Of a stretch of 64,000 nucleotides of DNA, positions 1 through 34,306 are shown one piece after another. How positions within the stretch are numbered: position 1 is the first letter of the stretch; every line of letters begins with the position of its first letter. Position numbers and translations under genes: made by a program. The DNA is taken from contig JAEEON010000036.1 of the NCBI GenBank assembly GCA_016284305.1, forward strand, positions 30,735 through 94,734. Reading direction: 5' to 3'. The notes under the pieces are model-generated. The model searched no databases. It saw only the letters and a list, made by a program, of their open reading frames with translations, and had not been told where the DNA came from. The stretch is from Bacteroidales bacterium (GTDB lineage Bacteria > Bacteroidota > Bacteroidia > Bacteroidales > F082).

Positions 1-1
1 G

Positions 2-568
2 GATGTCACTGATACAGCTGCTCTCAAAGCAGGACTGATGGGTATTCATAAAACGGAGGGAAAAATAGATGTTGTTGTTAACAATGCAGCTATTATCCAA
101 AACCAAAAGTTAGGCATGGTGACTAAACCTTTGCTTGAAAAGATGTTCAATGTGAATGTCTTTGCTGTCATTGACATGATGCAGATTGCCTCTCGTTTGA
201 TGGCCCGGACAGGTGGTGGAAGCATAATCAATATTGCCTCTATTACCGGAGTTGTTGGCTCTCCTGGCCAAGTTGCATATAGTTCTACCAAAGGGGCGGT
301 CATAGCAGCAACCAAATCAGCAGCTAAAGAATTGTCCCCAATGCAAATACGCGTCAATGCAGTTGCCCCAGGCATAATAAAGACAGAACGTTTTGAGGAA
401 TTGTATGAGGCCACTGGCGACAAGATCGACCAACGTATTAGCAGGATTGCTTTGGGACGTCTTGGCACTCCTCAAGATGTGGCTAATGCCGTTGCGTTCT
501 TGGCTTCAGATCGCGCTTCTTATATCAGCGGACATATCTTAGGTGTGGATGGCTGCGCTTCAATTTAA
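2..568 (+). CDS. Short-chain dehydrogenase/reductase, FabG-like 3-oxoacyl-ACP reductase (5' end cut by window edge)
   Basis: Frame is open from nt 2 (DVTDTAALKAG...), so the Met at 38 is internal. SDR motifs present: NNAA, YSSTK (YxxxK), APGIIKTE (PGxxxT), C-terminal GHILGVDGC. Confidence 0.85.
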   Translation, partial: DVTDTAALKAGLMGIHKTEGKIDVVVNNAAIIQNQKLGMVTKPLLEKMFNVNVFAVIDMMQIASRLMARTGGGSIINIASITGVVGSPGQVAYSSTKGAVIAATKSAAKELSPMQIRVNAVAPGIIKTERFEELYEATGDKIDQRISRIALGRLGTPQDVANAVAFLASDRASYISGHILGVDGCASI

Positions 569-572
569 TAAA

Positions 573-1952
573 ATGTTTTTAGATTTAAATCAAAAAGAAA
601 GGGATCGGATCGCAGTCATAGATGATAGCGGTAGGTCCGTGTCATACGGTGATATCTGTGATTTCTCTGAATCATTTGCTCTTCAATTGCCCAAAAGATC
701 TTTGATCTTTATCCTAGCGGAGAATAAAATAGGTTCTTTGTTGGGATATGTATCAGCTTTGAGTAATCGTATTGTCCCGTTAATCCTTAGTGCATCAACG
801 GAAGAAGGGTTGTATAGTCAGTTGTATGACAAATATAAGCCGGAGTACCTATGGCTTCCGTTGGCTATTGCAGAAAAAAAAGGCTTAGAACCTCATTTTA
901 CCGCATGGGACTATGCGTTGGTTAAAACTGGTAACGTTAATGTGCCAATGTTCGATGATTTGTCGCTCTTGCTTCCCACTTCTGGTTCAACAGGTAGTCC
1001 CAAACTTGTTCGACATAGTTATCGTAATATAGAAGCCAATGCCGATAATGTCAGAAGGCTTTTCCAATTGGATGGGACAGAAAAAGCTATGGCTATCCTG
1101 CCTATGCATTATACCATGGGCCTTTCGGTAATCACCTCCCATTTGTTGGCTGGCTCAACTTTGTTGCTTTCAGGCAGGTCTCTTTTGGACAAGGGCTTTT
1201 GGGCTATGTTAAAAGAGGCTACAAGCTTCACAGGTGTACCGTATAGTTATGAGATACTTATGAAGATGCGGTTCACCCGAATGGATTTGCCTAACCTCAA
1301 AGTGATCACTCAGGGTGGCGGGAAACTGTCAGGAGAGATGTTCCACCTTTTGGCTCAGTATGCCCACGACAAAGGCAAAAAATTCATCGCTACATACGGG
1401 CAATCTGAATGTACTGCCCGTATGGCATATTTGCCTTATGAGTTGGCTTTGGAAAAAACTTGTAGTATAGGTTATGCTGAACCTGGTGGACAGCTATCAA
1501 TCGTTGATGATAACGGCAATGAGTCTTTTGAAGGAGAAGCTCAAGGCGAGATGGTTTATCGAGGCGAAAATGTTACTCTAGGATATGCTACAAACCAGGA
1601 AGATCTTCAGAAAGGAGATGAAAACCATGGTGTGATGCATACAGGGGACTTGGCTAAACGAGATAAAGACGGCTGTTATTTCATCATAGGTCGGTTGAAA
1701 CGTTTCCTTAAAATCTATGGACTCCGCATTGGTCTTGACGAAGTGGAGCAAATGATAAAAGCTGAGTATGGGGCGGATTGTTATTGCAAAGGCAATGATG
1801 AAAAGCTTATAGTGCTTGTAACCGACCCGAAGTTGGTGGATTTATTGCCCTCTTTCATTGAGGAAAAGACTCATCTGTTCCATCAACGTATCGAGGCTCA
1901 ATTGGTGGACGCTATTCTGAGAAACGAAGCTGGAAAAGTAATTAATCAATAA
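573..1952 (+). CDS. AMP-dependent synthetase/ligase (acyl-ACP or acyl-CoA ligase-like, adenylate-forming)
   Basis: ANL motifs: LLPTSGSTGSPKLV (A3), ATYGQSE (A5), HTGDLAKRDKDGCYFIIGRLKRFLK (A8-A10 region). ATG at 573 preferred over the GTG at 543, which lies inside the upstream SDR. Confidence 0.85.
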   Translation: MFLDLNQKERDRIAVIDDSGRSVSYGDICDFSESFALQLPKRSLIFILAENKIGSLLGYVSALSNRIVPLILSASTEEGLYSQLYDKYKPEYLWLPLAIAEKKGLEPHFTAWDYALVKTGNVNVPMFDDLSLLLPTSGSTGSPKLVRHSYRNIEANADNVRRLFQLDGTEKAMAILPMHYTMGLSVITSHLLAGSTLLLSGRSLLDKGFWAMLKEATSFTGVPYSYEILMKMRFTRMDLPNLKVITQGGGKLSGEMFHLLAQYAHDKGKKFIATYGQSECTARMAYLPYELALEKTCSIGYAEPGGQLSIVDDNGNESFEGEAQGEMVYRGENVTLGYATNQEDLQKGDENHGVMHTGDLAKRDKDGCYFIIGRLKRFLKIYGLRIGLDEVEQMIKAEYGADCYCKGNDEKLIVLVTDPKLVDLLPSFIEEKTHLFHQRIEAQLVDAILRNEAGKVINQ

Positions 1953-1965
1953 ACATAATAAAAAG

Positions 1966-2205
1966 ATGACAAATAAAGAAAAATTAGACAGAATCTTTTG
2001 TGAGGTGTTCTCTGTTGAGGAATCTGCTTTGAACAATGATTTCAACAATTGTAATGTAGAGGGATGGGATTCCGTTCGTCAACTCAGCCTCACTACGGCT
2101 ATTGAGGATACTTTTGACATCATGCTTGATGCAGAGGATATCCTTGAATTCACTTCTTACGAAAACGCAAAGAAAGTATTGGCCAAATACGAAATTGAAT
2201 TATAA
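1966..2205 (+). CDS. Acyl carrier protein (ACP-1)
   Basis: 79 aa, acidic. Phosphopantetheine Ser in the GWDSVRQLSL context (DS motif). Sits between the ligase and KASIII. Confidence 0.8.
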   Translation: MTNKEKLDRIFCEVFSVEESALNNDFNNCNVEGWDSVRQLSLTTAIEDTFDIMLDAEDILEFTSYENAKKVLAKYEIEL

Positions 2206-3278
2206 TGGCATATTGGAATATTAAGAATGTAGCCCTTAGGGGTGTTACGGGCACGGTGCCAAACAATCCAGTGAAATCAAGTGACTTCGAATTCTTTGAT
2301 GAAAAAGATGCTGAGGTCTTTGATAATACTGTGGGCATTTTAAATCGTTATATCGCACCTGAAAATGTTTGTGCCTCTGACCTCTGTTATGACGCAGCAA
2401 CACGCTTGTTGGATGCTTTGGGATGGGAAAAAGAGTCAATAGACATTTTGTTGTTTGAATCAGTTACCGGGGACTATAAGACACCACCCACTTCGGGCAT
2501 TCTGCAAGACCGCTTGGGCTTGCCACAATCTACATTTGTTCTAGATGTTCCAATGGGCTGTTGTGGTTGCCTGTATGCGATTAACATCGCTGGAAATATG
2601 CTTTCATCTGGATCCGTGAAGAGAGCATTGCTGCTGATAGGGGACACTGCCTCTAGAATGGGCTCCAAGTTCGATAAAAGCCGAGTTCCTCTGTTTGGGG
2701 ATGCCGGTATGGCCATGGCATTGGAGTATGATGAAACAGCTGAGGATATACATATAGAGTTTAATACATTGGGGTCAGGATATCAAGCTCTTATGACTCC
2801 TCATGGTGGCTATCGTCATCCGATAGATCAAGAGACGTCTTTCGTGTATGAAGATTTTGGTAATGGAATTGTTCGAGCCCCCAAAGACGCTTTGATCAAT
2901 GGCATGAATGTTTTTTCCTTTGCCATCACAAGACCGCCTGTGAGTGTTAAAAACATGATGGACCGATTAGGACTTGACAAGGATAAGGATATTGACTATT
3001 TCTTAATCCATCAAGCAAATAAAATGATTGTGGATCGAATTGTGAAGAAACTAAAATTGGATCCGGAAAAAACTCCCTACGATTTGCAGGAATTTGGCAA
3101 TCTTGGAGGTGCTTCGATTCCCATGCTCATGACATACAACATTAGTGATTCGTTGCAAGCTCGTCCGTTGACACTACTCTGCTCTTCTTTTGGGCTTGGT
3201 TTGACATGGGGTACGATGTTGTTAAGAACGAATCCGATGATAGTTTTACCTGTATCCTATTTCGATTATGAACATTAA
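2205..3278 (+). CDS. 3-oxoacyl-ACP synthase III (KASIII/FabH-like), copy 1
   Basis: Cys-His-Asn triad contexts: MGCCGCLYA, FLIHQANKMI, EFGNLGGASIP. TAATG one-nt overlap with ACP-1. Confidence 0.85.
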   Translation: MAYWNIKNVALRGVTGTVPNNPVKSSDFEFFDEKDAEVFDNTVGILNRYIAPENVCASDLCYDAATRLLDALGWEKESIDILLFESVTGDYKTPPTSGILQDRLGLPQSTFVLDVPMGCCGCLYAINIAGNMLSSGSVKRALLLIGDTASRMGSKFDKSRVPLFGDAGMAMALEYDETAEDIHIEFNTLGSGYQALMTPHGGYRHPIDQETSFVYEDFGNGIVRAPKDALINGMNVFSFAITRPPVSVKNMMDRLGLDKDKDIDYFLIHQANKMIVDRIVKKLKLDPEKTPYDLQEFGNLGGASIPMLMTYNISDSLQARPLTLLCSSFGLGLTWGTMLLRTNPMIVLPVSYFDYEH

Positions 3279-4104
3279 GAATATTACCTATACCATTCTC
3301 AAAGGTTATAAAAAAGCGAAATCCCTGAAAAATAAGGGAGGGAGGTCCTCGTTCTCAGTCTATCGAGAGATGGTTTCGCTTTGTTTAAAGTATAACTTGT
3401 ATCTCTCGGATTATGTTGGCAACGGTTTCCATGCTTTTAATGATGAAGAAAGGAAAGTTGCCATTGATTTATTAAAAGAAAAAAGAGAGTACATCAAAAA
3501 AAGAGATGAGAATTGGCGCTTTTTGATTAAATATTCGGATTTCAAGTATCAAAGAAGTAATAAGGCGAAAGAAAAGAAAAGATTGGCGTATATAAAACAA
3601 TACCATATGGGACCTCATTGCAAGGTTCAATATGGGGTGATGTTTATTTTTGACCATCGCAACATCGGAAAACTAAATATTGGCGATAATGTTTTGTTCG
3701 CAAGAAATGTAGATGTTGATATTACTGGTGATTTGACGATTAGTGATGGTGTGAAGATTTCAGAAGGAGCTAAGATATTGACACACAGCCATGATTTCCT
3801 TGGTACCTATAGAGAAGAGGATTTGATACCTTTTTCCAATAGGGCACATAATACCCCCCTTTTCATCGGTGAAAACGTGTTGATAGGTGCACATTCCATT
3901 ATCATGCCCAATGTCAAAACTATTGGTGAGAATGCGGTTATCTCCGCAGGGTCCGTTGTTGCCCATCCCGTTCCTGCAAATACTATAGTATCTGGCAATC
4001 CGGCTGTAGTTGTGGGCAAGATGCCTAAAAGGCTTAGGGTGTCAACACAACAATTTTATGATGATAGTTTTGCTGCTCAGATTAGAAAAAGGATGAAGTC
4101 GTAA
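3268..4104 (+). CDS. Left-handed beta-helix (hexapeptide) acyl/acetyltransferase with about 150-aa non-LbH N-terminal extension, paralog A
   Basis: C-terminal hexapeptide rungs: IGDNVLFARNVDVDITGDLTISDGVKISEGAKILTHSHDF ... IGENVLIGAHSIIMPNVKTIGENAVISAGSVV ... VSGNPA. Overlaps the KASIII stop by 11 nt. Confidence 0.75.
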   Translation: MNIKNITYTILKGYKKAKSLKNKGGRSSFSVYREMVSLCLKYNLYLSDYVGNGFHAFNDEERKVAIDLLKEKREYIKKRDENWRFLIKYSDFKYQRSNKAKEKKRLAYIKQYHMGPHCKVQYGVMFIFDHRNIGKLNIGDNVLFARNVDVDITGDLTISDGVKISEGAKILTHSHDFLGTYREEDLIPFSNRAHNTPLFIGENVLIGAHSIIMPNVKTIGENAVISAGSVVAHPVPANTIVSGNPAVVVGKMPKRLRVSTQQFYDDSFAAQIRKRMKS

Positions 4105-4117
4105 ATGTTTTTAGATA

Positions 4118-4939
4118 ATGGTTTTTATGAAACAATTGATTCGTCGCTTATTTAAAAAATGGTTCTTTGCTAAAAAAATCGCCTCCCTTACAGAAGGTGG
4201 AAGATCGGTTTTCTCCATTTATTGTGATTTTAAGAGCAAGCATCGTAACTATGGAATTACCCGTTGGCAGTATCAAGAAAACAGGTTGTTTGAATTGTCT
4301 GGTGATGAACTGAGTGTTAAGTGCGATCAATTAAAGAAGGAGAATGATACCATCAATCAATGGGTTAAAGAGCGTTTTAGAACCCGACGTTTCCTTACAA
4401 AATATATGGATCATCGCTTCGAAAATAGTTTGCGGCTGATAAAAAAGAGACAGAAGGCTTATACACAGTTCTATGGGCTCGGAGAAAAATGCAGTGTTCA
4501 ATATGGCGTTTCCATTATTTCTGAGCATCATCATACCGGTCATTTTAAGGTGGGAGATTACTGTTTGTTTGCACGTAATTGTGATATTGATATTACAGGG
4601 GATTTGATGGTCGGTAATGGCGTATCGTTTGCGGAAGGCTGTAAAGTTTTAACGCACAGTCATGATTTTTTTGGTGCCTACGATGACTGTGAATTAATCC
4701 CATATTCCAATAGAGCTCGCAACACTCCTTTAAAAATTGGTGATAATGTTTTAATTGGAGCGCATTCTCTTATCATGTCAGGTGTTGGCGAAATTGGCGA
4801 AAACTCAATTATTTCAGCAGGTTCAGTGGTAACTAGACCAGTGCCGGCTAATTGCGTGGTTTCGGGAAATCCGGCGCAAGTTGTCAATAAAATTCCATCT
4901 GGAGCGCGTATCTATTATAGACAAAATAAAGCAGACTAA
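4118..4939 (+). CDS. Left-handed beta-helix acyl/acetyltransferase with N-terminal extension, paralog B
   Basis: Collinear with paralog A: GGRSVFSIY vs GGRSSFSVY; LTHSHDFFGAY..ELIPYSNRARNTPLKIGDNVLIGAHSLIM vs LTHSHDFLGTY..DLIPFSNRAHNTPLFIGENVLIGAHSIIM. Confidence 0.75.
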   Translation: MVFMKQLIRRLFKKWFFAKKIASLTEGGRSVFSIYCDFKSKHRNYGITRWQYQENRLFELSGDELSVKCDQLKKENDTINQWVKERFRTRRFLTKYMDHRFENSLRLIKKRQKAYTQFYGLGEKCSVQYGVSIISEHHHTGHFKVGDYCLFARNCDIDITGDLMVGNGVSFAEGCKVLTHSHDFFGAYDDCELIPYSNRARNTPLKIGDNVLIGAHSLIMSGVGEIGENSIISAGSVVTRPVPANCVVSGNPAQVVNKIPSGARIYYRQNKAD

Positions 4940-4940
4940 A

Positions 4941-5885
4941 ATGAAAGCATTCATATTTCCAGGCCAAGGTTGCCAAAAAGAAGGTATGGGAAAAGACTTA
5001 TATGAGAAATTCCCCAAGGCAAAAGAATTATTTGAAAGAGCAAACGATTTTTTTGGTCGCCGTATTACCGATGTGATGTTCAACGGTACAGAGGAAGAGC
5101 TGATGGAAACCATCAACACACAACCTTCGGTGTTCCTATATGAGGTGGTTCTGGCTTTGTGTCAAGATGATGTTAAACCCGATGTAGTTGCGGGTCATTC
5201 TCTCGGTGAGTTTGCTGCATTGGTCATCAATGGAACCATTAGTTTTGAGGATGGCCTGAACCTAGTTCTGAATCGAGCAGTGATTGGACAAAAAGCTTAT
5301 GAGAGTTCGTCTGTCAAAACTGGCATGGGTGCTGTCATCGGCTTGAATGATGAGTATGTGGAGAGGCGAATTAAAGAGATATGGGACGAGACAGGTGAAC
5401 CTATCTATTTTGCAAATTACAATGGCCCAGGACAAGTTGTGATTTCGGGTTCGCGTAAAGGAGTTAGGGCGGCTTGTAAAGCTTTTATGGCCGAAGGAGC
5501 GAAGAAGGCGGTTCCCTTGGCTATTGGTGGTAGTTTCCATACTCCTTTTATGAATGAAGCTCGCGTGGAATTGGGTGAAATCATCAAAGAGACTAAGTTC
5601 AACAGACCGACTATCCCTATTTATCAATGCGTTGATGCTCTCCCTCATACAGATCCTGAGACGATTAAGGATAATCTAATTCAACACATAACGCATCCCG
5701 TTTTATGGACGACGATGACCCATAATATGGTTAAGGATGGAGTGACGGAATTTTTTGAGGTTGGAACTGATGATACCTTGGAAAAGATTGTTCACAGAAT
5801 GTATCCCGATTTACATCAACAATCTTTGTTGGATGTTCCATCTTATTGTGGTAAAGTTGCAAATTATAAGATTGTTAAAGAATAA
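4941..5885 (+). CDS. Malonyl-CoA:ACP transacylase (FabD-like)
   Basis: MKAFIFPGQG N-terminus, GHSLGEFAAL active-site Ser motif, TQPSVFLYE, GSFHTPFM. ATG at 4941 preferred (the listed 4881 start lies inside the upstream gene). Confidence 0.9.
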   Translation: MKAFIFPGQGCQKEGMGKDLYEKFPKAKELFERANDFFGRRITDVMFNGTEEELMETINTQPSVFLYEVVLALCQDDVKPDVVAGHSLGEFAALVINGTISFEDGLNLVLNRAVIGQKAYESSSVKTGMGAVIGLNDEYVERRIKEIWDETGEPIYFANYNGPGQVVISGSRKGVRAACKAFMAEGAKKAVPLAIGGSFHTPFMNEARVELGEIIKETKFNRPTIPIYQCVDALPHTDPETIKDNLIQHITHPVLWTTMTHNMVKDGVTEFFEVGTDDTLEKIVHRMYPDLHQQSLLDVPSYCGKVANYKIVKE

Positions 5886-5920
5886 TAAACGTTAATACTT
5901 ATCTAATAAAATTAAGAATT

Positions 5921-6148
5921 ATGACACTTGATGAATTTGTAAAAGCATTTGCTGCCGAGTTTGACGATACGCCAACTGAGCAGTTTACTCCCTCAACCAA
6001 TTATAGAGAATTAGAGGAGTGGGGGTCGTTAACAGCATTATCAATCATTTCAATGGTTGACGATGAAATGAACAAGCGCGTTACAGGAGCGGACCTTAGA
6101 AAATGTGCCACGATTGAGGAATTGTATAATTTAGTGGAGTCAAAATAA
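5921..6148 (+). CDS. Acyl carrier protein (ACP-2)
   Basis: 75 aa, acidic, four-helix-like pattern. Candidate phosphopantetheine Ser in EEWGSLTALSI. Positioned before the second KASIII. Confidence 0.7.
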   Translation: MTLDEFVKAFAAEFDDTPTEQFTPSTNYRELEEWGSLTALSIISMVDDEMNKRVTGADLRKCATIEELYNLVESK

Positions 6149-6160
6149 ACTGTCTTATAT

Positions 6161-6183
6161 GGGCGGTACGCAAGGTGCCGCCC
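6161..6183 (+). other. GC-rich hairpin between ACP-2 and KASIII-2 (possible intra-operon RNA structure)
   Basis: GGGCGG (6161-6166) pairs with CCGCCC (6178-6183) around an 11-nt loop. No strong T-run follows. Confidence 0.25.
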
Positions 6184-6199
6184 TCTTAAAATCATCATT

Positions 6200-7267
6200 A
6201 TGTCGTCGATAAGTGTTAAGAATATCTCAATCAAAGGAATGGCAGGTTGTGTCCCTTCCCGTGTGGTTGAAAACAGGGATTTCCCGGGCATGAGTGCTGA
6301 GGAGATTCAGAAGTACATTAATGTGACTGGCGTTGAACGTCGTCATTGTGCCATTCATGATGGAAGTATTTGTACTTCCGATCTGTGCCAAAAAGCTGCT
6401 GAAAAATTGTTGTCAGATCTTAATTGGTCGAAAAGTGAAATTGATTTATTAGTATTTGTTTCACATACTACTGATTACAAATTACCTGCTACAGCTATAG
6501 TTCTTCAGGATAAGATGGGGATACCGACCTCTTGTCTTGCTTTTGATATTACGCTGGGTTGTTCGGGGTTTTTAGTTGGTTTGGGCGTTATGGGAAACCT
6601 TATGGCCTCGGGGTTCTTTAGAAAAGGGTTGTTGATGGTTGGAAATACTCAATCTGAATATGCAAGTCCAGAAGACCGAAGTATGGCTTTGTTGTTAGGC
6701 GATGCAGGCACAGTTACTGCTATTGAGTATAATCCTGCTTCCAGGGATGAGATGAATATCACCTATATGTCAGATGGTTCGGGACGTGAATTTGTTATAT
6801 TACCTGATGGTGGATCCCGTAACCCAGTCAGTGAAAAGTCATTTGTCATGGAGGACTGTGGCGATGGTATCCGTCGTTCTCGCTTGCATGAAAAGATGAT
6901 CGGTGACGAGGTGTTTTCTTATGGAACCTTCTATATTCCGAAAGTTTATAATGAGATGCGAGAGAAATTCAATGTTGAACCTGATGATGTGGATTATTTG
7001 CTGTTGCATCAAGCTAATAAGTTTTTATGTGAAAAACTAAGAAAAAAAATGAAGTTCCCTCCTGAGAAAGTGCCGTATAACATTCAGGAGTTTGGGAATA
7101 CCAGCGGTGCTACCATCCCACTTTTGATGGTTACTGAATTGCAACACCAATTGAAAGACAAAGATCTCAATATGCTTGCAGCTACTATTGGTGTTGGCTT
7201 CTCTTTGGGTGTCGCCCAAATAAAAACGCATGGGGGAATCATCGTTCCTGACTTGTTGTTCCTTTAG
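6200..7267 (+). CDS. 3-oxoacyl-ACP synthase III (KASIII/FabH-like), copy 2
   Basis: Triad contexts: TLGCSGFLVG, LLLHQANKFL, EFGNTSGATIP. Confidence 0.85.
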   Translation: MSSISVKNISIKGMAGCVPSRVVENRDFPGMSAEEIQKYINVTGVERRHCAIHDGSICTSDLCQKAAEKLLSDLNWSKSEIDLLVFVSHTTDYKLPATAIVLQDKMGIPTSCLAFDITLGCSGFLVGLGVMGNLMASGFFRKGLLMVGNTQSEYASPEDRSMALLLGDAGTVTAIEYNPASRDEMNITYMSDGSGREFVILPDGGSRNPVSEKSFVMEDCGDGIRRSRLHEKMIGDEVFSYGTFYIPKVYNEMREKFNVEPDDVDYLLLHQANKFLCEKLRKKMKFPPEKVPYNIQEFGNTSGATIPLLMVTELQHQLKDKDLNMLAATIGVGFSLGVAQIKTHGGIIVPDLLFL

Positions 7268-7295
7268 AATGTTTGTTAATTCTGTTTGAAAGAAA

Positions 7296-7880
7296 ATGAA
7301 GCATTTAGTTATAATTGGTACGGGTAATGTTGGCCAAATTGTTAGATGGTATGCTTCCTTAAGCAAAGATTATCTATCAAGTTGGGATATTAAATGTAAT
7401 ATCGATAATGTTGATGATTACGAGATTGAGCCGGATGATGTATTTGTTTGTGCGGAGGCAAAACCTGCGTTAAGGTTTGAGAAGTCTAATGTCATTAGAG
7501 CAAAAGGAGGGGAATTCATTAACGTCATACATCCGATGGCCAATATTGCTCCTTCTTCCATTCTTGGTACTGGGATTGTTGTCGGTGCGTTTTCTACGGT
7601 TTCAATTAATACCATGATTAGTAATGACGTGTTGATTCAAGATCATTGTAATGTCGGTCATGATGGTGTCGTTGAACAAGGATCCCATCTATATGTTGGA
7701 GTGAAATTGTGTGGGCGTAACAAGGTGGGAGTGCGTACGTCTATTTTTACTGGGGCCGTGGTCTATCCCGATGTAAAAATCGGAGATGATTGTACGGTAG
7801 GGGCTGGCAGTGTGGTAAGCCGCAAAGTAAAAGATGGGGAAACAGTTTTGGGCAATCCTGCAAAAAAAATTGAGATTTAA
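7296..7880 (+). CDS. NeuD/PglD/VioB-type sugar N- or O-acyltransferase (Rossmann-like N-domain + LbH)
   Basis: N-terminal LVIIGTGNVGQ, then hexapeptide rungs: IAPSSILGTGIVVGAFSTVSINTMISNDVLIQDHCNVGHDGVV ... IGDDCTVGAGSVV. About 194 aa, typical of the family. Confidence 0.75.
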   Translation: MKHLVIIGTGNVGQIVRWYASLSKDYLSSWDIKCNIDNVDDYEIEPDDVFVCAEAKPALRFEKSNVIRAKGGEFINVIHPMANIAPSSILGTGIVVGAFSTVSINTMISNDVLIQDHCNVGHDGVVEQGSHLYVGVKLCGRNKVGVRTSIFTGAVVYPDVKIGDDCTVGAGSVVSRKVKDGETVLGNPAKKIEI

Positions 7881-7882
7881 AC

Positions 7883-8623
7883 ATGAATAACTCTGTTTTT
7901 GGTCTTGAAGGAAAAACGTTACTCATTACCGGAGCGTCTTCTGGAATAGGTAGGGCAACTGCTATTGAATGCTCGAAAATGGGGGCAAAAGTGTTTCTAA
8001 CTGCCCGAAATAAGGAGAGACTCGAACAGACATTGAATGAAATGGAAGGTGAGGGTCACAAGATAATTCCAGCTGATTTAACAGTTGCAGGAGATATTCA
8101 ACGTTTAGCAAATGAGATTGATGTGCTTGATGGTGTTGCCTTGGTTTCAGGTATCAACGACAAGATGATTATTAAGAAATTGGACGATTCCTTTGTCTCT
8201 CAAATGCTATGCACCAACTTTTCTGGACCTGCATTGCTGATGAGATCCTTGTTGAAATACAAAAAGATAGCTAAACAGGCCTCCATCGTTTTCATGTCTT
8301 CCGTATCGGCTTTTTATCCAACGGTATCTAATGCAATGTATGCTGCCTCAAAGGCTGCAATGAATCAGTTTGCCAAAGTTCTTGCCCTTGAAGTGTTGCC
8401 TCTGAAAGCTAGGGTGAATTGCATTCTTCCCGCTTTTGTGGAGACGGAAATGATAAACAAGTACGGAGAAGACACGTTGAACGAAATCCGTAGCAATTAT
8501 CCTTTAGGGCGATTTGCCAAGCCAGAGGAAATTGCATACGCTGTCATATATTATTTCTCTGATGCTACCCAATTGGTTACAGGAACGTCTTTTGTGATTG
8601 ATGGAGGTTATACACTGAAATGA
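7883..8623 (+). CDS. Short-chain dehydrogenase/reductase (3-oxoacyl-ACP reductase-like)
   Basis: TGASSGIG cofactor motif, catalytic YAASKAA (YxxxK), C-terminal TGTSFVIDGG. Confidence 0.85.
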   Translation: MNNSVFGLEGKTLLITGASSGIGRATAIECSKMGAKVFLTARNKERLEQTLNEMEGEGHKIIPADLTVAGDIQRLANEIDVLDGVALVSGINDKMIIKKLDDSFVSQMLCTNFSGPALLMRSLLKYKKIAKQASIVFMSSVSAFYPTVSNAMYAASKAAMNQFAKVLALEVLPLKARVNCILPAFVETEMINKYGEDTLNEIRSNYPLGRFAKPEEIAYAVIYYFSDATQLVTGTSFVIDGGYTLK

Positions 8624-8629
8624 TTTGAA

Positions 8630-9640
8630 ATGCTAAGAGATTATCGATTTGATATCGCTAGAGTAATCTGTATGACCTATATAGTGGCTTTCTGCCATTT
8701 ATGGTCTTATGTGCACCCGGATGTCGTCTCGGCAATTTATGTACACCCCATCTTTCTCATATTGACAAATGCTTGTTTGGGATTGTTCACTTTTGCCTCT
8801 GGCTATCTTTTGGGACAAAAATATTCTTTCGGAGAAGGAGGTAACAGTAGCGTTTGGCAGTTCTATTACAAGAGGATTGTTCGTATTATCCCTCTTTTTG
8901 TGCTTGCATCAGCGGTATTGTATTTGATTGGATTAAATGGCTATAAAGCTACATTGAATGGTGTTCTTTGTATTTCTCCGTTCATTAAACCTAGGCCAAA
9001 AACATTATGGTATATACCTGTAATATTGTTTTGCTACTTAATCACCCCTTTGGTTTCAAAAAAGAATAAAGTTTGGAGAATAGGAATGGGTTTGGCTTTA
9101 GCTGTGGCTATATGGATTCTGCAGAAATTGATTAGTAGTGTTGATTGGAGGTTGTCGTTCTATTTACTTTTCTATTTGCTTGGATTGGTTTCAGCACCCT
9201 ATTTTAACTGGAAGTTTGAAAAAGCTCCTTTTGTAAAAATAATCACTATCATTGTTTTTTGCGTGTTAACTCTAATTTGCTTATGGATTTCACCTACGGT
9301 TCTGTATAAAAAGGTTGTATCCGGCATAGGGGTTTTTGCACTATTGTTTGTTTGTGAGATCCTTGCGTCAATGTGTTTTAAAGATTCTATGCATGGGTCT
9401 TCCTTCAATCGAATTATACTAAATGTAAGCTATGCAAGTATGGCCTGCTACATGTTTCATCGCCTCTTTTTCTGGTTGGGTGAAAGAATTCTGAATCCGG
9501 ATTTGTCTTGGGTCAAATGGTTGTATATGGCAGGTCTCGTTTATCCTATTATGCTTGTTCTGTCATTTTGGTTGCAGAAAGGTTATGATGCTATAGTCGG
9601 CTCTATTAAACTCAATAATTCCAATAAATTAAAACCATGA
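8630..9640 (+). CDS. Membrane acyltransferase family 3 (OatA/WecH-like O-acyltransferase)
   Basis: N-terminal FDIARVICMTYIVAFCH signature. About 10 hydrophobic segments throughout. Confidence 0.75.
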   Translation: MLRDYRFDIARVICMTYIVAFCHLWSYVHPDVVSAIYVHPIFLILTNACLGLFTFASGYLLGQKYSFGEGGNSSVWQFYYKRIVRIIPLFVLASAVLYLIGLNGYKATLNGVLCISPFIKPRPKTLWYIPVILFCYLITPLVSKKNKVWRIGMGLALAVAIWILQKLISSVDWRLSFYLLFYLLGLVSAPYFNWKFEKAPFVKIITIIVFCVLTLICLWISPTVLYKKVVSGIGVFALLFVCEILASMCFKDSMHGSSFNRIILNVSYASMACYMFHRLFFWLGERILNPDLSWVKWLYMAGLVYPIMLVLSFWLQKGYDAIVGSIKLNNSNKLKP

Positions 9641-10641
9641 AGAATAACTTTGCTTATCGGTTGTATGTTCAATTGAAACGTAGAAAGTCAAGAAAACGTT
9701 TTTTAATTGATAAATACGGACAAAATCCAAAGATTAGGAGAAAGGCATTATGGGCTTGGCTGTTTTGCGGCATTGCTCCTAATGAGTTCCATAGACTTCA
9801 TTGTGAAGAAAAGACAAAAAAAGAAATTCGCACTTTTTTGTCGTTGAGTGAGACCCGAGAGTTTTATAGAAAATATAATTCTAGCAAGGCACAGAAGATA
9901 TTGAGCGACAAGTATATTGCCTATACGCGTTTTAAAGAATTCTATAAGCGCAACTGCATATTGATAACTAAGGATGATATTGAAAATAATGTTCTTGAAA
10001 CAAAAATTCATGAGTTCTGGCAGAAGGATTCCGTGAATCAAAGGGGGGCGATTTTCAAACCATTAAAAGGAGAGAGAGGATTCGGTATTAAGATTTTCCA
10101 TGATGAAAAAGAGGCGGTTGAAATGATAAAACAAACCGATGGAGGAGTCATGGAGGAACTGATTGTTCAGAATGAAGAACTTGCTGAGTATAATCCTTCT
10201 TCTGTTAATACGTTGAGAATAATCACTGTTAATTATGGAGATGGTACTGTCGATGTGAAATGGCCAGTAATGAGATATGGTAGGGAAGGAAGCGTTGTTG
10301 ATAATTCGGGAAGTGGAGGAGTGTTTGCTGCTGTTGATGTTGCGAGTGGCAAGACTCTAGCGGCTTGTGATGAATTTCATAATTTCTTTGAGGTTCATCC
10401 TGATACTAAGAAAAAACTAAGTGGGGTCGTTATTCCCCAATGGAATGAAGCATGTGCCTTGGCCAAACATCTTGCTACCATGATCCCTGAAGCCGTAATT
10501 GTCGGTTGGGATCTTGCTCTCTCTGATGACGGATGGTGCATGGTTGAAGGCAATTCTTCTCCTTTGATTGGACATCAGATTGCAATTGATCGAGGATTGA
10601 AAGATGAATGGAGAAAGACTGTGTCTCGGGTTAAGAAATAA
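9637..10641 (+). CDS. ATP-grasp enzyme of the 'sugar-transfer associated' type
   Basis: ATGA overlap with the upstream gene. ATP-grasp core-like segments: AIFKPLKGERGFGIKIF, GVMEELIVQNEE, NTLRIITV, GWDLALSDDGWCMVEGNSSP. Family assignment is from recollection of ATPgrasp_ST architecture. Confidence 0.6.
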   Translation: MKNNFAYRLYVQLKRRKSRKRFLIDKYGQNPKIRRKALWAWLFCGIAPNEFHRLHCEEKTKKEIRTFLSLSETREFYRKYNSSKAQKILSDKYIAYTRFKEFYKRNCILITKDDIENNVLETKIHEFWQKDSVNQRGAIFKPLKGERGFGIKIFHDEKEAVEMIKQTDGGVMEELIVQNEELAEYNPSSVNTLRIITVNYGDGTVDVKWPVMRYGREGSVVDNSGSGGVFAAVDVASGKTLAACDEFHNFFEVHPDTKKKLSGVVIPQWNEACALAKHLATMIPEAVIVGWDLALSDDGWCMVEGNSSPLIGHQIAIDRGLKDEWRKTVSRVKK

Positions 10642-10662
10642 TTTCGCACTGGTTTCATAAAG

Positions 10663-11307
10663 ATGGAGAAAATTGTTGTTATGCCTAAACCTGATTGGAT
10701 ATCATGGGAAGATATCCATCAATTGTTGTTGTCGGCTCATAAAAAAAACATTGACAAGGGAATAGTGATGGGGACCTCTCAGCTTTCAGGTCCGGAACTG
10801 GAAAAAAGAGTTGGTGAATTGGGGCGTTGCTTTGTCGCATTGGCGGATGACATCCTTGTAGGCACCACATCAGTTGGCTTCTTTAAAGGACGTTCATGGT
10901 ATGATAAAAACCAGTTAGTGGCTCATAGTATGTTGGCGGGAATTCTTCCCAGGTATCAGGGAATAGGTATCGTTGATGAGCTCAATGCTATGAGAGACGC
11001 GTATATTCATGAAGTGGGCGCTACCATAATTCAAGCAGATACTGCTGAAGGTAATACCATAGTTCGAAAAAACGCTAAAAGAAACGGCTACCGTGAGGTT
11101 GAGTATCGCGCTTTTAAATCCGGACACTATTCGGTAATCTTTGTAAAATGGTTAAACGGATGTCCCTTTTCTGATAGATATATCCATAGACGGTATAAGC
11201 TTTCAGAGCGATTGACCAAGATTCAATATAAACCTGGTCGTATAGAAAGGTCACGTGTCTTGTCTCTCTTTTGTAGAGCTATCAGGAAAGTTATTCTAAT
11301 TCATTGA
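10663..11307 (+). CDS. GNAT family N-acetyltransferase
   Basis: Acetyl-CoA pyrophosphate-binding motif RYQGIGIVDEL (Q/RxxGxG/A). 214 aa. Confidence 0.65.
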   Translation: MEKIVVMPKPDWISWEDIHQLLLSAHKKNIDKGIVMGTSQLSGPELEKRVGELGRCFVALADDILVGTTSVGFFKGRSWYDKNQLVAHSMLAGILPRYQGIGIVDELNAMRDAYIHEVGATIIQADTAEGNTIVRKNAKRNGYREVEYRAFKSGHYSVIFVKWLNGCPFSDRYIHRRYKLSERLTKIQYKPGRIERSRVLSLFCRAIRKVILIH

Positions 11308-11308
11308 T

Positions 11309-13129
11309 ATGCATAGGTTTATTCCACTCATAATGGCATGTGTTTTTGTGACGAGCTCTTGCAAAAAAGAGCCGTCACGGGATGAAATTATGCCTGTAAA
11401 TACTGAAGTGGATGGCCAAATGGTTGATTTGCTGAATGAAAACATCAATAGTTTGCGTGAGTTAGCCATTTGTTATGGCAAAGAGGATAAGGTTATTTAT
11501 AGTGACAATTATGGGCTTTCTGATGATGCATATCGTTTTTATTTTGAAAGCGGAAGCCAGTTGGTTTTCCCCAAATTATCCAACTATAAAAACCTGCCTT
11601 GTCCATCAGTTTCGATGATTTTTGTTGACAGCGTATTTTTTTGGACATTAAATGATCATATTTTAAGGGATGAACAAGGGATCCCAATAAGCGTTGATTC
11701 TACTCGAATTGCTCCAAAACTGTATTTTGAATCTGGTTGCTGGTATTATACCATCAATGGAACTGAATATAAATATTGTGAAGCCCAAGAATCATTCCGC
11801 CCGATATGTTTTGAAAATCCAAAGAATTGTGGGTTTGTTGTATTTGTTTTGCCGTTAGGGTGTAAAATTGTGGTTCCCGAGTCGGATTGTGTTTCAAAGC
11901 TTAGGGTATTTATGCCAAATATGGCTTATTATAAGGATGTTTTTTTGGATGCAGGTATTGGATTGACTTCAAGAAGGCAATTATATGCAACATTGTTTCT
12001 TGGCTTATCATTGGAATGTATGAGTTTTTCGTCTGATGATTACACTGATTTACAAAATCAGTTGATTGAAGGTGATTCTTTGGATGTTAATGGACGATTG
12101 CTCTATCCCGATGGTCAACCTAGATACAAGTTACTGTTCGTTAACGGTGGAAGAGCAACGATGCATGGACAGTCATTGACAGAGGGCTCCCATTCCAACA
12201 TGCGCTTGTTCCGAGAGGCTGGAGGCAGTTATGTAGGGACATGCGCTGGTGCTTTTTTTGCTTCAAATGGATATAATAGGCCTGAAATTAATCCGGATTA
12301 TTTGCATATCTGGCCTGAGTTTGTCCATAATACTCATTTGTCCCAAAGTCATACAGGTTTTGTGATAACGCCTAATTCTCCTTTATTGGATTATTTCGAT
12401 TTTGGGGGCGATTTTTATCTGGATAGTGTTCGACATAATGGTGGATGTTATCCGGATGTGTTACCTTTGGGCAGTGAAGTCTTGGCATTATATGATTATC
12501 CTGCTATTGAGTCAATGCATCTTCAGCCATCAGCTTGGGCTTACAAAGAGAATTCAACTGCGGGAAGAATCGTCCAGATAGGTTCTCATCCGGAGGAAGT
12601 GAGTGATGGAGAGCAAAGAGATTTCACTGCTGCATCGATATTATATGCCATTGAAGGACGAGGCGTTTCAATTGTGAAAGGCTCACTTCAAAATGGTATT
12701 TGGCGGGATATGGACAAAACCACATCTGAGAATGATCCGGATTACACTGTGATTGGGGATCTCCAATGTCATCATTTTCTGACTTATATTCCTGATGATG
12801 CTGTTGAGGTGGAGTTTAATTTGAATTGTGATGCGGATGTTGATATGTCATTAATGATAAGCAAAGATGTTTATGCTTACGAAGAGTATGCTCAGTATGT
12901 CTCTGAATCTACTGGAGCCAATCATCGTTTTTTGTTTTCCAGATTGTCCAAAGGCTTATGGTTCGTGACTGTGAAATGCAATACGACAGTTGATGTAACT
13001 CAAACTGAATGGGGGCAAGAATATGGTGGAAGAACAGATGTTCTTAACGGAGTCCCGTATTCGGTGAGAGTAAAATGGAGTACTCCGTTAAAACTCGCTG
13101 AACAGTTGAAGCCTCCATTTTATAAATAA
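11309..13129 (+). CDS. Surface lipoprotein with BPL_N/class-I-glutamine-amidotransferase-like domain and a possible PPC-type C-terminal beta-sandwich
   Basis: Lipobox MACVFVTSSC. LLFVNGGRATMHG...REAGGSYVGTCAGAFFAS resembles the BPL_N/GATase1 nucleophile-elbow region. C-terminal NCDADVDMSLMISKDVYAYEEY resembles the pre-peptidase C-terminal domain. Confidence 0.45.
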   Translation: MHRFIPLIMACVFVTSSCKKEPSRDEIMPVNTEVDGQMVDLLNENINSLRELAICYGKEDKVIYSDNYGLSDDAYRFYFESGSQLVFPKLSNYKNLPCPSVSMIFVDSVFFWTLNDHILRDEQGIPISVDSTRIAPKLYFESGCWYYTINGTEYKYCEAQESFRPICFENPKNCGFVVFVLPLGCKIVVPESDCVSKLRVFMPNMAYYKDVFLDAGIGLTSRRQLYATLFLGLSLECMSFSSDDYTDLQNQLIEGDSLDVNGRLLYPDGQPRYKLLFVNGGRATMHGQSLTEGSHSNMRLFREAGGSYVGTCAGAFFASNGYNRPEINPDYLHIWPEFVHNTHLSQSHTGFVITPNSPLLDYFDFGGDFYLDSVRHNGGCYPDVLPLGSEVLALYDYPAIESMHLQPSAWAYKENSTAGRIVQIGSHPEEVSDGEQRDFTAASILYAIEGRGVSIVKGSLQNGIWRDMDKTTSENDPDYTVIGDLQCHHFLTYIPDDAVEVEFNLNCDADVDMSLMISKDVYAYEEYAQYVSESTGANHRFLFSRLSKGLWFVTVKCNTTVDVTQTEWGQEYGGRTDVLNGVPYSVRVKWSTPLKLAEQLKPPFYK

Positions 13130-21995: not shown

Positions 21996-23189
21996 ATGAA
22001 AACCCTTCTTTTGTTAGGAGGTGGCTTCCTCCAATGCTTTGTCATAAAAAAAGCTAAAGAACTCGGCTATCGGGTGATGGTATTAGATGCCGACCCTAAT
22101 GCAATGGGATTCCAAATGGCAGACAATTACGCTGTTATCAACATTGTTAATGAAGAAGCGTGTTTGAAATATGCACAGGAACACAAAGTGGATGGCGTGC
22201 TTACCGCTGCTACTGATTTCAGCGTCTTGACCATGAGCCGTATCGCAGAAGAAATGCACTTGCCAGGTATCAACTATAAGGCTGCCAAACGTATCAAGAA
22301 TAAAGCTGATGTTCGTAAATGTCTGTTTGATGCGAAGGCCGATGATACCGGATACTCTTTTGAGATTGACTCATTGGATCAGATTCCCCAGATATTGCCC
22401 CGAGTGAAGTTTCCTGTGATGATGAAACCTTGTGATGGCTCTGGTAGTAGGGGCGCTTCGCGCGTGGATGAAGCTTCGGACTTTGAAAAAGCATGTGTTT
22501 TTGCCATGAGTGGATCTATCACTCATAGGGCTGTGGCTGAACCTTTTGTGGAGGGCAAAGAATATGGAGTGGAGTCGTTTGTGGATCATGGCGAGATTCA
22601 TATTCTTGGCATCATGCAGAAGGATATGACCTTGCCGCCTTATTATGCCGAATTGGGCCATGCAATTCCATCTGGCTTGTCTCCCAAGCAAGAAGAGAGG
22701 ATAAGCTCCTGCGTGAGGAAAGCCCTGTTGGCGTTGGAAGTCAACCATGGCTCGGTGAATATGGATCTGCTTATCGGTGATAACGGTGATGTGCATATTG
22801 TTGACATCGGTGCCCGAATGGGAGGCAACCTGATCGGGTCTCACGTCATTCCTATTGGGACCGGTGTTGATTATATGGGCAATATGATTCGTGCCGCTGT
22901 TGGTGATCCAACGGATTTCATGAGCCATGGACAACATCAGCCTGTAGCGACTAAACTTTTGGCATTGACCCCAGGAAAGGTGAAAGCCTTACCGGATTTC
23001 AAAACAATCGAAGAAGAGTATAAGGTGAAGATCGAACATCATTTGCATGTTGGTGATGCTATCAACGAATATCATACTAATCTGGATGGCTGTGGATATG
23101 TAGTGGCAACTGACCTTGATGTGAAATGTGCCATAGAGAGAGCTGCAATGGTTAAAAAAACTATTGATGAATTGATTGTCAGGGAATAA
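21996..23189 (+). CDS. ATP-grasp ligase (L-amino-acid-ligase / carbamoyl-phosphate-synthase-like fold)
   Basis: MKTLLLLGGGFLQ Rossmann-like N-terminus, FPVMMKPCDGSGSRGASRV (P-loop-like lysine region), EPFVEGKEYGVESF, NMDLLIGDNGDVHIVDIGARMGGN. Confidence 0.75.
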   Translation: MKTLLLLGGGFLQCFVIKKAKELGYRVMVLDADPNAMGFQMADNYAVINIVNEEACLKYAQEHKVDGVLTAATDFSVLTMSRIAEEMHLPGINYKAAKRIKNKADVRKCLFDAKADDTGYSFEIDSLDQIPQILPRVKFPVMMKPCDGSGSRGASRVDEASDFEKACVFAMSGSITHRAVAEPFVEGKEYGVESFVDHGEIHILGIMQKDMTLPPYYAELGHAIPSGLSPKQEERISSCVRKALLALEVNHGSVNMDLLIGDNGDVHIVDIGARMGGNLIGSHVIPIGTGVDYMGNMIRAAVGDPTDFMSHGQHQPVATKLLALTPGKVKALPDFKTIEEEYKVKIEHHLHVGDAINEYHTNLDGCGYVVATDLDVKCAIERAAMVKKTIDELIVRE

Positions 23190-23194
23190 CTTGT

Positions 23195-24106
23195 ATGGAA
23201 TTAATAGCACTGAAAAAGGACGAATTACGTGGTAGATTACAGCAATTCTGTGACCTATATCATCATTGTTTCAATGACCATATAGACAACAACATCATTG
23301 AACACAGATATCTGCAAAATCCGATCGATGAGTTGTTTATGTTTGTGGCTATTGATCACGGTAAAATTGTTGCCAATTATTCAGTGACTCCCAACTATTT
23401 GCAATACAATGGTCGAAGGATAAAAAGTGCTTTGTCGTTGAACACGATGACCCATCCTGAGTATGTTGGTCGAGGGTTGTTTGTTGAGTTAGCCTCAATG
23501 CTATATGATGAGTTGAGGAAACAAGGCTACTGGATGGTATATGGCTTCCCGAATTATATCTCGAATCGAACGTTTTGTAGTAAATTGGGATGGAGAGATA
23601 TTTACGAGATACCCACTTTGGAACTCGTGATTGATAATCCGATTGGTTTTGATCGGTCCAATGTCTTCATGGCTTCAGATTACGCTATCTCTCCAACACT
23701 TGAAAAGCGTATTCATGTCTCAAAAACTGAAATGTATTTGCATTGGCGGTATCAGAGTAAGCCATATACCCAATACTATTGTATTAAAACGCAATCGGGG
23801 AGTTGGGCGGTTTACAAGTACTATCAGAACATGGTGAACATCGTTGAGTTACATGTAAATAATGATACGGATCTAGTGGATTTGATAGGATTCATTTCTG
23901 AAATGGTCATCAATGAAGGATTGGAGAAAATGACGGTTTGGTCGGAGGTGAATAGCAAGACGCATCTTGGTCTGGAGAAGCTGGGATTTCGCAATCGGTA
24001 TCCAATTACCTATTTTGGTGCTTGTGTATTGAATGAATCTGAAAATATTGATATTTGGGATTACCGTAATTGGAGTATCCAAATGGGTGATGATAATGTT
24101 TATTAA
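23195..24106 (+). CDS. GNAT-fold acyltransferase, two-domain (about 300 aa)
   Basis: THPEYVGRGLFVELASMLYDEL acyl-CoA-binding motif. The extra C-terminal domain gives a size typical of GNAT proteins paired with ATP-grasp ligases. Confidence 0.55.
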   Translation: MELIALKKDELRGRLQQFCDLYHHCFNDHIDNNIIEHRYLQNPIDELFMFVAIDHGKIVANYSVTPNYLQYNGRRIKSALSLNTMTHPEYVGRGLFVELASMLYDELRKQGYWMVYGFPNYISNRTFCSKLGWRDIYEIPTLELVIDNPIGFDRSNVFMASDYAISPTLEKRIHVSKTEMYLHWRYQSKPYTQYYCIKTQSGSWAVYKYYQNMVNIVELHVNNDTDLVDLIGFISEMVINEGLEKMTVWSEVNSKTHLGLEKLGFRNRYPITYFGACVLNESENIDIWDYRNWSIQMGDDNVY

Positions 24107-34291: not shown

Positions 34292-34306
34292 CCGTTGATT
34301 GCGGCG

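Follow-up and report, generated by a model that had tools for sequence, protein, structure and literature searches.

A two-module acyl carrier protein cassette in a Bacteroidales polysaccharide locus, predicted to make hydroxyacyl decorations of sugars

We analyzed a 64,000-nucleotide stretch of DNA from a Bacteroidales bacterium (GTDB lineage F082; assembly GCA_016284305.1, contig JAEEON010000036.1, positions 30,735 to 94,734 of the forward strand), hereafter the window, and characterized the gene cassette at its start, which encodes acyl carrier proteins (ACPs), 3-oxoacyl-ACP synthases III (KASIII), a FabD-type transacylase, an adenosine monophosphate (AMP)-forming ligase, short-chain dehydrogenases/reductases (SDRs) and acyltransferases of the left-handed beta-helix (LbH) fold. 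Positions 1-8623 hold eleven co-directional genes on the plus strand, as an initial annotation made from the sequence had described; the gaps of 0-50 nucleotides (nt) given there proved to range from an 11-nt overlap to a 51-nt gap. Minus-strand open reading frames (ORFs) in this part are at most 140 amino acids (aa) long, and all are nested within plus-strand genes. A promoter and terminator scan of positions 1-12000 gave counts at the level of shuffled sequence, and no internal transcription units could be called. The genes of the cassette, and the one that follows it, are listed below.

1..568, plus strand: SDR-B, classical FabG-like reductase, C-terminal 188 aa (cut by the window start); Pfam adh_short_C2, 4e-49
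573..1952, plus strand: AMP-forming ligase, 459 aa; Pfam AMP-binding, 5.7e-36
1966..2205, plus strand: ACP1, 79 aa; Pfam PP-binding, serine in GWDS
2205..3278, plus strand: KASIII-1, 357 aa; Pfam ACP_syn_III and ACP_syn_III_C
3268..4104, plus strand: long LbH acyltransferase 1 (LbH-1), 278 aa; Pfam Hexapep
4118..4939, plus strand: long LbH acyltransferase 2 (LbH-2), 273 aa, tandem paralogue of LbH-1; Pfam Hexapep_2
4941..5885, plus strand: FabD-type malonyl-coenzyme A (CoA):ACP transacylase, 314 aa; TIGR00128
5921..6148, plus strand: ACP2, 75 aa; Pfam PP-binding, serine in EWGS
6200..7267, plus strand: KASIII-2, 355 aa; Pfam ACP_syn_III and ACP_syn_III_C
7296..7880, plus strand: NeuD/PglB/VioB-type LbH N-acyltransferase (NeuD-like protein), 194 aa; TIGR03570 and PDB matches
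7883..8623, plus strand: SDR-C, FabG-like ketoreductase, 246 aa; Pfam adh_short_C2, 2e-45
8630..9640, plus strand: membrane Acyl_transf_3 protein, 336 aa; Pfam Acyl_transf_3, 2.3e-22

Profile searches gave strong Pfam or NCBIfam support to all eleven family assignments, bearing out the families named in the initial annotation; the FabD protein lies above the TIGR00128 cut-off narrowly (266 versus 260.9 bits). Catalytic residues were checked by alignment to E. coli FabH, FabD, FabG and ACP, reference sequences whose catalytic residues land at the published numbers. Both KASIII-1 and KASIII-2 keep Cys112, His244 and Asn274 (E. coli numbering), the FabD protein retains Gln11, Ser92, Arg117 and His201, the Asn/Ser/Tyr/Lys tetrad is present in SDR-B and SDR-C, and the phosphopantetheine serine of ACP1 and ACP2 aligns with E. 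coli Ser36. The ligase carries the motifs SGSTGSPK and GDLAKRDKDG and a terminal GK, and the NeuD-like protein, whose best PDB matches are the PglB acetyltransferase domain (4m98, 3e-18), PerB (4ea7) and PglD, has a His aligned with the catalytic His of PerB and PglB. The catalytic motifs, the KASIII triads included, are thus intact, as first read. KASIII-1 and KASIII-2 are 38% identical, and the best PDB match of KASIII-1 is 4efi (9.5e-57). At the position of E. coli Phe87, KASIII-1 has a Thr, a change that, by analogy with the M. tuberculosis enzyme, would widen the primer pocket; this is weak evidence.

In agreement with the initial annotation, Pfam searches of all window ORFs of at least 150 aa gave no match to FabZ/FabA, FabI/K/L, KASI/II or a thioesterase, and no dehydratase, enoyl reductase, KASI/II or thioesterase lies in the 10 kb upstream on the source contig either. 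A MaoC-type dehydratase was found in 4 of 51 related cassettes (see below), so this family is detectable where it is present.

The exact KASIII-1 sequence led to the 108-kb source contig, which we read for genes 5′ of the window. The window start cuts the cassette: the source contig additionally encodes ACP0 (77 aa), SDR-A (249 aa) and the full 252-aa SDR-B, and the order before SDR-B is a 4,6-dehydratase/epimerase, UDP-glucose dehydrogenase, a 763-aa protein, a PnuC-like protein, a cytidylyltransferase, the Wzx flippase, ACP0 and SDR-A. The description of the cassette as self-contained and heading the locus was therefore an artefact of the window edge. The whole cassette comprises three ACPs, three SDRs, two KASIII, one FabD, one ligase and three LbH proteins, so that the earlier counts of KASIII, FabD and ligase hold, while those of two ACPs and two SDRs each rise to three with the upstream genes. 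Downstream in the window follow the Acyl_transf_3 membrane protein, a sugar-transfer ATP-grasp protein, LicD, Wzy, glycosyltransferases and more acetyltransferases, and further on an ATP-grasp/GNAT pair, two small phosphoglycosyl transferases, gmd, fcl and two DegT aminotransferase genes. Of the latter, which lie at 28114 and 32110, one is PseC/ArnB-like and the other LegC-like; they confirm the aminotransferases previously placed downstream. The cassette accordingly lies mid-operon, between Wzx and Wzy/glycosyltransferases, and G+C content is ~0.37-0.42 across the first 22 kb versus ~0.50 in the conserved part of the window.

To place the cassette among its relatives, its FabD was scanned against one genome per species, which gave 65 loci, nearly all from Bacteroidales, including Odoribacter laneus, Butyricimonas muris, Bacteroides stercorirosoris (strain DSM 26884, L040) and Gabonibacter massiliensis. 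The loci (numbered, like the other loci below, with the prefix L) were annotated by BLAST against the window proteins, and GNAT, MaoC and metallo-beta-lactamase calls came from Pfam scans of representative neighbours. We counted 51 complete cassettes. All of them have KASIII and reductase genes; an ACP2-type carrier was detected in 45, directly 3′ of FabD in nearly all, and an adjacent LbH or GNAT N-acyltransferase is present in 38. Less frequent are a metallo-beta-lactamase-fold gene (28/51), an AMP ligase (13/51) and a MaoC-type dehydratase (4/51). The ratio of KASIII to reductase genes is 1:1 in 32 cassettes, 2:2 in six and 2:3, the type of the window, in five. FabD-ACP-KASIII-SDR cassettes are widespread in Bacteroidales polysaccharide loci, and the synteny survey that the initial annotation had proposed thus found such blocks in number, mostly beside an N-acyltransferase gene.

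Two accessory genes of these related cassettes are absent from the one in the window. The MaoC-type dehydratase gene lies between a NeuD-like gene and a second KASIII gene (L028, 13753-14220; also L031, L034 and L035), and the toolkit could with it also make unsaturated or deoxygenated acyl groups. The metallo-beta-lactamase-fold gene closes its 28 cassettes (L028, 16091-16780, and 27 others) and encodes a protein of ~225 aa, a candidate thioester hydrolase or editing enzyme.

The window cassette is a fusion of two modules from this widespread toolkit. One, which we call module B, is FabD-ACP2-KASIII-NeuD-SDR; it stands alone in L068 and L074, in the gene order of the window including NeuD, at 80-88% identity. 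The other, module A, is a six-gene unit, ACP0-SDR-SDR-AMP ligase-ACP1-KASIII, plus a dedicated family of long LbH acyltransferases. At least 120 clusters contain a KASIII at least 75% identical to KASIII-1, and it was the gene contexts of such close relatives that revealed this unit. Module A occurs alone in L004-L009, L075-L078 and L081, where FabD, the second ACP-KASIII pair and the NeuD and SDR genes of module B are all missing. A lone module A has a PglD-like gene or a gene for a 154-aa protein upstream, a long LbH gene downstream, or both; its usual 5′ neighbours are DegT, an ATP-grasp ligase and either the PglD-like LbH or the 154-aa protein, which has no family match. In the module A contexts that were examined, the gene after the ligase is ACP1, except in L078, with a glycosyltransferase gene between the two, and in L019, which is rearranged and has a distant (47%) ligase after its ACP. 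The carriers and reductases likewise fall into two classes. ACP2 shares 53% identity with ACP0 of L080 and belongs to the same subfamily, whereas ACP1 shares just 22-23% with either of them; SDR-C is 45% identical to SDR-A, whereas SDR-B, at 28-33% to these two (28% to SDR-C), forms a separate subfamily. Over its 188 aa in the window, SDR-B is 98% identical to the 252-aa SDR of L080. In the searchable literature we found no description of a ligase-primed module of this kind, equipped with a separate carrier class and a separate LbH transferase family.

Several features of the module A loci deserve mention in their own right. In L004 (3648-6623), L075 (1775-4574) and L078 (432-2335), an ATP-grasp gene of the amino-acid-ligase type and an N-acyltransferase or 154-aa gene precede module A, with DegT ahead of them where the contig extends that far. 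These genes hint at an aminoacyl-amino sugar as a possible acceptor; in the window itself, an ATP-grasp/GNAT pair lies at 21996-24106. The conserved 154-aa protein (L007, 6135-6599; L075, 4110-4574), which matches no Pfam family, takes the position that the PglD-like N-acyltransferase has in other module A loci. In addition, a variant of module A in L083 continues (7888-12326) with a second AMP ligase (495 aa), a formyltransferase-like gene, an ACP, FabD and a metallo-beta-lactamase-fold gene, and has an additional KASIII between ACP0 and the reductases, which gives two KASIII to two reductases.

Among cultured carriers, Butyricimonas muris GBG-M4 has a composite of both modules (L038) and Odoribacter laneus YIT 12061 has module B only (L029). 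We compared KASIII sequences among loci with one or both modules. KASIII-2 proteins from composite loci form no group of their own: that of the window is 85-89% identical to those of L010, a composite, and of L013, L035, L061 and L068, which have module B only, and that of the composite L027 clusters, at ~60%, with those of a different set of module-B-only loci. KASIII-1 of the window is 77-79% identical to enzymes of module-A-only loci versus 65-76% to those of other composites. Composites have thus arisen more than once, from different KASIII-2 lineages. Close relatives, L079/L080, share the window architecture from Wzx through the genes after SDR-C. Nucleotide identity between L080 and the window is 87.5% over positions 1-5005 (module A) and 83.6% over 7907-11973, and the module A proteins are 93-98% identical. 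Between these parts, window positions 5005-7907 correspond to a divergent block in L080 (7879-10107), where FabD, ACP and KASIII are 56, 68 and 45% identical at the protein level and there is no NeuD gene. The replacement of FabD-ACP2-KASIII-2-NeuD in L080 looks like a recombinational cassette exchange inside a conserved frame. This block swap, together with the mixing of KASIII-2 lineages, argues against co-adaptation of the modules.

The two long LbH proteins had been regarded as odd paralogues separating two ACP-KASIII pairs. They share 49% identity over 252 aa and belong to a small family of 67 proteins (E ≤ 1e-10), and a gene of this family lies just downstream of KASIII-1, mostly adjacent, in every context examined (the window, L007, L010, L027, L075, L079/80, L081 and L083). 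Given this constant position, the long LbH protein is an accessory of module A and not a separator, its most plausible role being that of the module's transferase. Its core is of the maltose/galactoside acetyltransferase class, with a catalytic His aligned with that of the maltose enzyme. An AlphaFold2 model of LbH-1 (pLDDT 92.9) shows ~110 additional, helical residues at the N-terminus and a further helix at the C-terminus, and its fold matches galactoside/maltose acetyltransferases and the hydroxyacyl N-acyltransferase AntD of the Bacillus cereus anthrose pathway. AntD was crystallized with 3-hydroxybutyryl-CoA and N-acylates a dTDP-4-amino-4,6-dideoxyhexose. Unlike the long LbH proteins, AntD and the maltose/galactoside O-acetyltransferases lack the ~110-aa N-terminal region and the C-terminal helix; they use acyl-CoA, and identity to them is only 20-28%.

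At the level of genes, the cassette resembles ACP-dependent hydroxyacyl decoration cassettes such as vioS/acp/vioR/vioB and wfpC-G: it has dedicated ACPs, KASIII with the intact triad, FabG-type reductases together with no dehydratase or enoyl reductase, an adjacent PglD/VioB/NeuD-type N-acyltransferase with the expected His, and a glycan locus with aminotransferases. The closest system is that of Flavobacterium psychrophilum, a member of the same phylum, where the genes for the R1 group of the O-antigen, wfpC (KASIII), wfpD (ACP), wfpE (KASIII), wfpF (FabG-like) and wfpG (PglD-like), also lie in a Wzx/Wzy locus and likewise include two KASIII, an ACP, a reductase and a PglD-family enzyme with no dehydratase or enoyl reductase. 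They were matched to 4-N-(3,5-dihydroxyhexanoyl)-bacillosamine, a function predicted from structure and gene content and not reconstituted. The wfpC-G set, which we liken to the cassette by gene content and not by alignment, has one ACP and one reductase and lacks FabD, AMP ligase and long LbH genes; the window goes beyond it in having its own FabD, three ACPs that fall into two classes, three reductases, the ligase-primed module and the long LbH family. Serotype-linked replacement of the acyl gene set in F. psychrophilum resembles the block swap between the window and L080. For module B and the commonest, 1:1 type of Bacteroidales cassette, the same parts list is found in the viosamine island of Pseudomonas syringae (vioS KASIII, acp, vioR reductase and vioB LbH N-acyltransferase; product 3-hydroxybutanoyl-viosamine) and in the homologous flagellin glycosylation island of P. 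aeruginosa PAK. Modified viosamine was lost in vioR and vioB mutants of P. syringae. This island, again likened by gene content, differs in that it serves a flagellin glycan in a proteobacterium and has no dedicated FabD or ligase module. In Vibrio cholerae, the O-antigens of both O100 and O3 contain bacillosamine with a 3,5-dihydroxyhexanoyl group, and that of O100 also bears 3-hydroxybutanoyl on a second amino sugar. O100, a proteobacterial case likened by structure alone, is a structural precedent for two hydroxyacyl groups per repeat unit.

A further likeness concerns module A. In the tetronate pathway (RfbK-O) of V. cholerae O1, an ACP and an AMP ligase make the N-acyl group of perosamine. 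As predicted for module A, an amino sugar of the O-antigen receives an unusual N-acyl group by way of an adenylating enzyme and its dedicated ACP; in contrast to module A, the pathway uses reductase and alcohol-dehydrogenase steps and not KASIII condensation.

In our search of the literature, no paper on such cassettes in Bacteroidales was found. The initial annotation had called the logic and product of the arrangement in Bacteroidales uncharacterized, which leaves the Flavobacterium, Pseudomonas and Vibrio precedents out of account. 3-Hydroxybutanoic acid of B. fragilis PS A2 was considered as a lead and dropped because it is ether-linked to heptose, a different chemistry.

Taking these results together, we propose, with a probability of roughly 60%, that the cassette is a two-module composite encoding an accessory ACP-dependent pathway in which short hydroxyacyl groups are made and then attached to sugars of a Wzx/Wzy-type surface polysaccharide. 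Substrates, products, carrier assignments and acceptors are here predicted from gene content, residues, modularity and synteny. In module B, FabD would malonylate ACP2, KASIII-2 would join a small primer, most likely acetyl-CoA, to malonyl-ACP2, SDR-C would reduce the 3-oxo group, and the NeuD/PglD-type enzyme would N-acylate a nucleotide-linked amino sugar, the expected group being 3-hydroxybutanoyl. In module A, the ligase would load a small acid onto ACP1, SDR-B may reduce a keto group of this starter, KASIII-1 would condense the starter with malonyl-ACP0, SDR-A would reduce the new 3-oxo group, and a long LbH protein would transfer the hydroxy- or dihydroxyacyl group to a sugar amine or hydroxyl. 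Since dehydratase and enoyl reductase are absent, chains are expected to stay oxygenated. The division of the parts into two classes (ACP0/ACP2 with SDR-A/SDR-C versus ACP1 with SDR-B) and the gene order suggest that ACP0 and ACP2 are malonyl (extender) carriers working with SDR-A/SDR-C-type reductases, and that ACP1 is the ligase-loaded starter carrier. The general logic of the initial annotation, namely ACPs, KASIII with malonyl-ACP, reduction to the hydroxy stage and LbH transfer to an amino sugar, fits the residues, the missing dehydratase and enoyl reductase and the DegT genes, and is retained. Its single linear path, from the ligase through one or two extensions to NeuD, is not favoured, because there are two modules that each stand alone elsewhere with their own transferase and recombine freely. 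We consider two modules acting side by side, and so two acyl decorations, more likely than one relay, and two such groups per repeat unit are what V. cholerae O100 displays.

A number of observations weigh against this proposal. The NeuD-like protein matches TIGR03570 at 8e-39 with 133 bits and does not reach the cut-off of 160.8, and L010 and L079/L080 have module B with no adjacent NeuD gene, so that the NeuD assignment is not universal. Trp32, Arg36 and Arg249, which hold CoA/ACP in E. coli FabH, are changed in both KASIII, and Arg151 is kept only in KASIII-2; as these contact residues are not retained, the primer type is not fixed by sequence. The best solved relatives of the ligase are oxalate-CoA ligase (2.7e-24), luciferases, DltA and MatB, and a substrate assignment from the likeness to oxalate-CoA ligase was dropped because this relative is remote. 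Module A has two reductases per one KASIII, which leaves one keto group unaccounted for unless the starter bears it. The DegT aminotransferase genes are ~20 kb away from the cassette, the long LbH enzymes could serve both modules, and no product of any Bacteroidales cassette of this type is known. Finally, the contiguous genes and the single FabD would fit a relay too.

In such a relay, which extends the model of the initial annotation to three carriers, a ligase-loaded starter would pass from ACP1 through KASIII-1 to ACP0, be reduced, and pass through KASIII-2 to ACP2 and be reduced again, and the NeuD-like protein would move a single longer polyhydroxy acyl chain, e.g., a C7-C8 di- or trihydroxy group, onto one amino sugar. 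We regard it as possible though rather unlikely. The parts adjoin one another, point in one direction and are separated by tiny gaps, one FabD stands against two extender-type carriers, no PglD-like gene lies beside ACP0 on the source contig, related loci include 2:2 sets of KASIII and reductases, and in F. psychrophilum two KASIII genes are matched to one 3,5-dihydroxyhexanoyl chain. However, each module is found alone with its own transferase, and long LbH genes go together with module A. At 88% identity to module-B-only enzymes, KASIII-2 probably uses the same primer as these, the composites have more than one origin, with different KASIII-2 lineages, and L080 exchanges KASIII-2 for a 45% relative while its module A hardly changes. 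Adaptation of KASIII-2 to module A, which would favour the relay, was looked for in the KASIII comparison and not found. A more far-reaching version appears doubtful to us: a non-iterative, KASIII-only carrier relay (ACP1 to ACP0 to ACP2) with one KASIII and one reductase per round would turn an adenylated keto or hydroxy starter into a C7-C8 polyol acyl group with two to three hydroxyls, unreported on any glycan; the long LbH proteins would be a new class of ACP-dependent sugar acyltransferases, the modules carried would set chain length and pattern, and swaps would be a source of capsule antigen diversity in Bacteroidales of gut and rumen.

Other explanations would keep the genes but change their role. 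One or both KASIII might be acyltransferases that move an ACP-bound acyl group directly to a sugar, as the KASIII-like enzymes CerJ, ChlB6 and DpsC do; KASIII-1 directly follows the ligase and its ACP in module-A-only loci that have no FabD, and the loss of the FabH CoA/ACP contacts would agree with this. It is nevertheless unlikely, because both enzymes have the full Cys/His/Asn triad and not the alterations of the CerJ/ChlB6/DpsC type (Asn to Asp, Cys to Ser), FabD and an extender-type ACP always accompany KASIII-2, dedicated LbH/GNAT transferases are present, and the reductases that accompany every KASIII cassette are sensible only if a 3-oxo group forms. Release of the acyl product as a free small molecule or lipid could be imagined from the many related cassettes that end in the candidate thioester hydrolase gene. 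We hold this to be quite improbable for the window, whose cassette has neither that gene nor a thioesterase and sits between Wzx and Wzy, and an adjacent sugar-type N-acyltransferase gene is present in 38/51 of its relatives. As regards type II fatty acid synthesis, the cassette has the same families and catalytic residues as its initiation set (FabD, FabH, FabG and AcpP), and its FabD passes the fabD equivalog cut-off, if barely. That a housekeeping initiation set lies in this locus by chance is very improbable indeed; scores against equivalog models, the lack of partner enzymes nearby, the block swap and the occurrence of several copies all led us to reject it. The two KASIII score 193 and 206 bits versus a FabH cut-off of 249 (PRK09352), and ACP1 reaches 21.6 bits and ACP2 gives no match, versus cut-offs of 71-106 for AcpP models. 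Neither the window nor the upstream part of the contig encodes an elongating KASI/II, FabZ or FabI, close relatives differ by the block swap, one genome bin has two cassettes (L011 and L048), and L061 and L063 each have two FabD genes. The G+C content is ~0.40, versus ~0.50 in the conserved part of the window, and the cassette is an accessory, variable part of a polysaccharide locus. Likewise, a ligase-primed type II polyketide initiation module was considered and dropped: the ligase-ACP1-KASIII-1 trio is present, but no KS-alpha/CLF or KASI/II-type protein is encoded in the window.

The chemistry proposed for the two-module composite is of a kind already predicted in other bacteria; what is newer here is a widespread, combinatorial toolkit and an undescribed ligase module. 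In Bacteroidales of the gut and rumen, the capsule influences susceptibility to phages, recognition by the immune system and competition, and very few capsule structures are known chemically. The present comparison offers a way to read a common, unstudied gene set, in which the acyl decoration would be predicted by counting KASIII, reductase, carrier, ligase and dehydratase genes, and block swaps would be expected to alter it. If the predictions hold, defined hydroxyacyl groups could be installed on sugars with these modules as compact and portable tools, and the modules could be used as markers for in silico serotyping, as already done for F. psychrophilum.

The gene directly downstream of the cassette is a frequent neighbour of module B, following the reductase in L011, L027, L064, L068 and L079/80. 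Its Acyl_transf_3 product is possibly an O-acyltransferase, and its membership in the cassette is uncertain. It opens a block (8630-13129) that is kept in L079/L080 and also encodes a sugar-transfer ATP-grasp protein (PF14397), a 214-aa protein of no family and a 606-aa protein with a weak BPL_N match. In L081, a long LbH gene, a gene for a 198-aa protein with no family match and a PF14397 ATP-grasp gene come directly after module A.

Further along the window, G+C rises from ~0.38 to 0.47-0.54 past ~26 kb, which may mean that a variable and a conserved region meet there, or that two loci lie side by side. The two small phosphoglycosyl transferase genes, of the PglC type, lie ~10 kb apart (24113-24700 and 34295-34981). 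Abutting the end of the polysaccharide locus, a minus-strand ORF of 2570 aa (34948-42660) contains GH94 catalytic and supersandwich domains and a glucoamylase-like domain, and resembles cyclic beta-1,2-glucan synthases.

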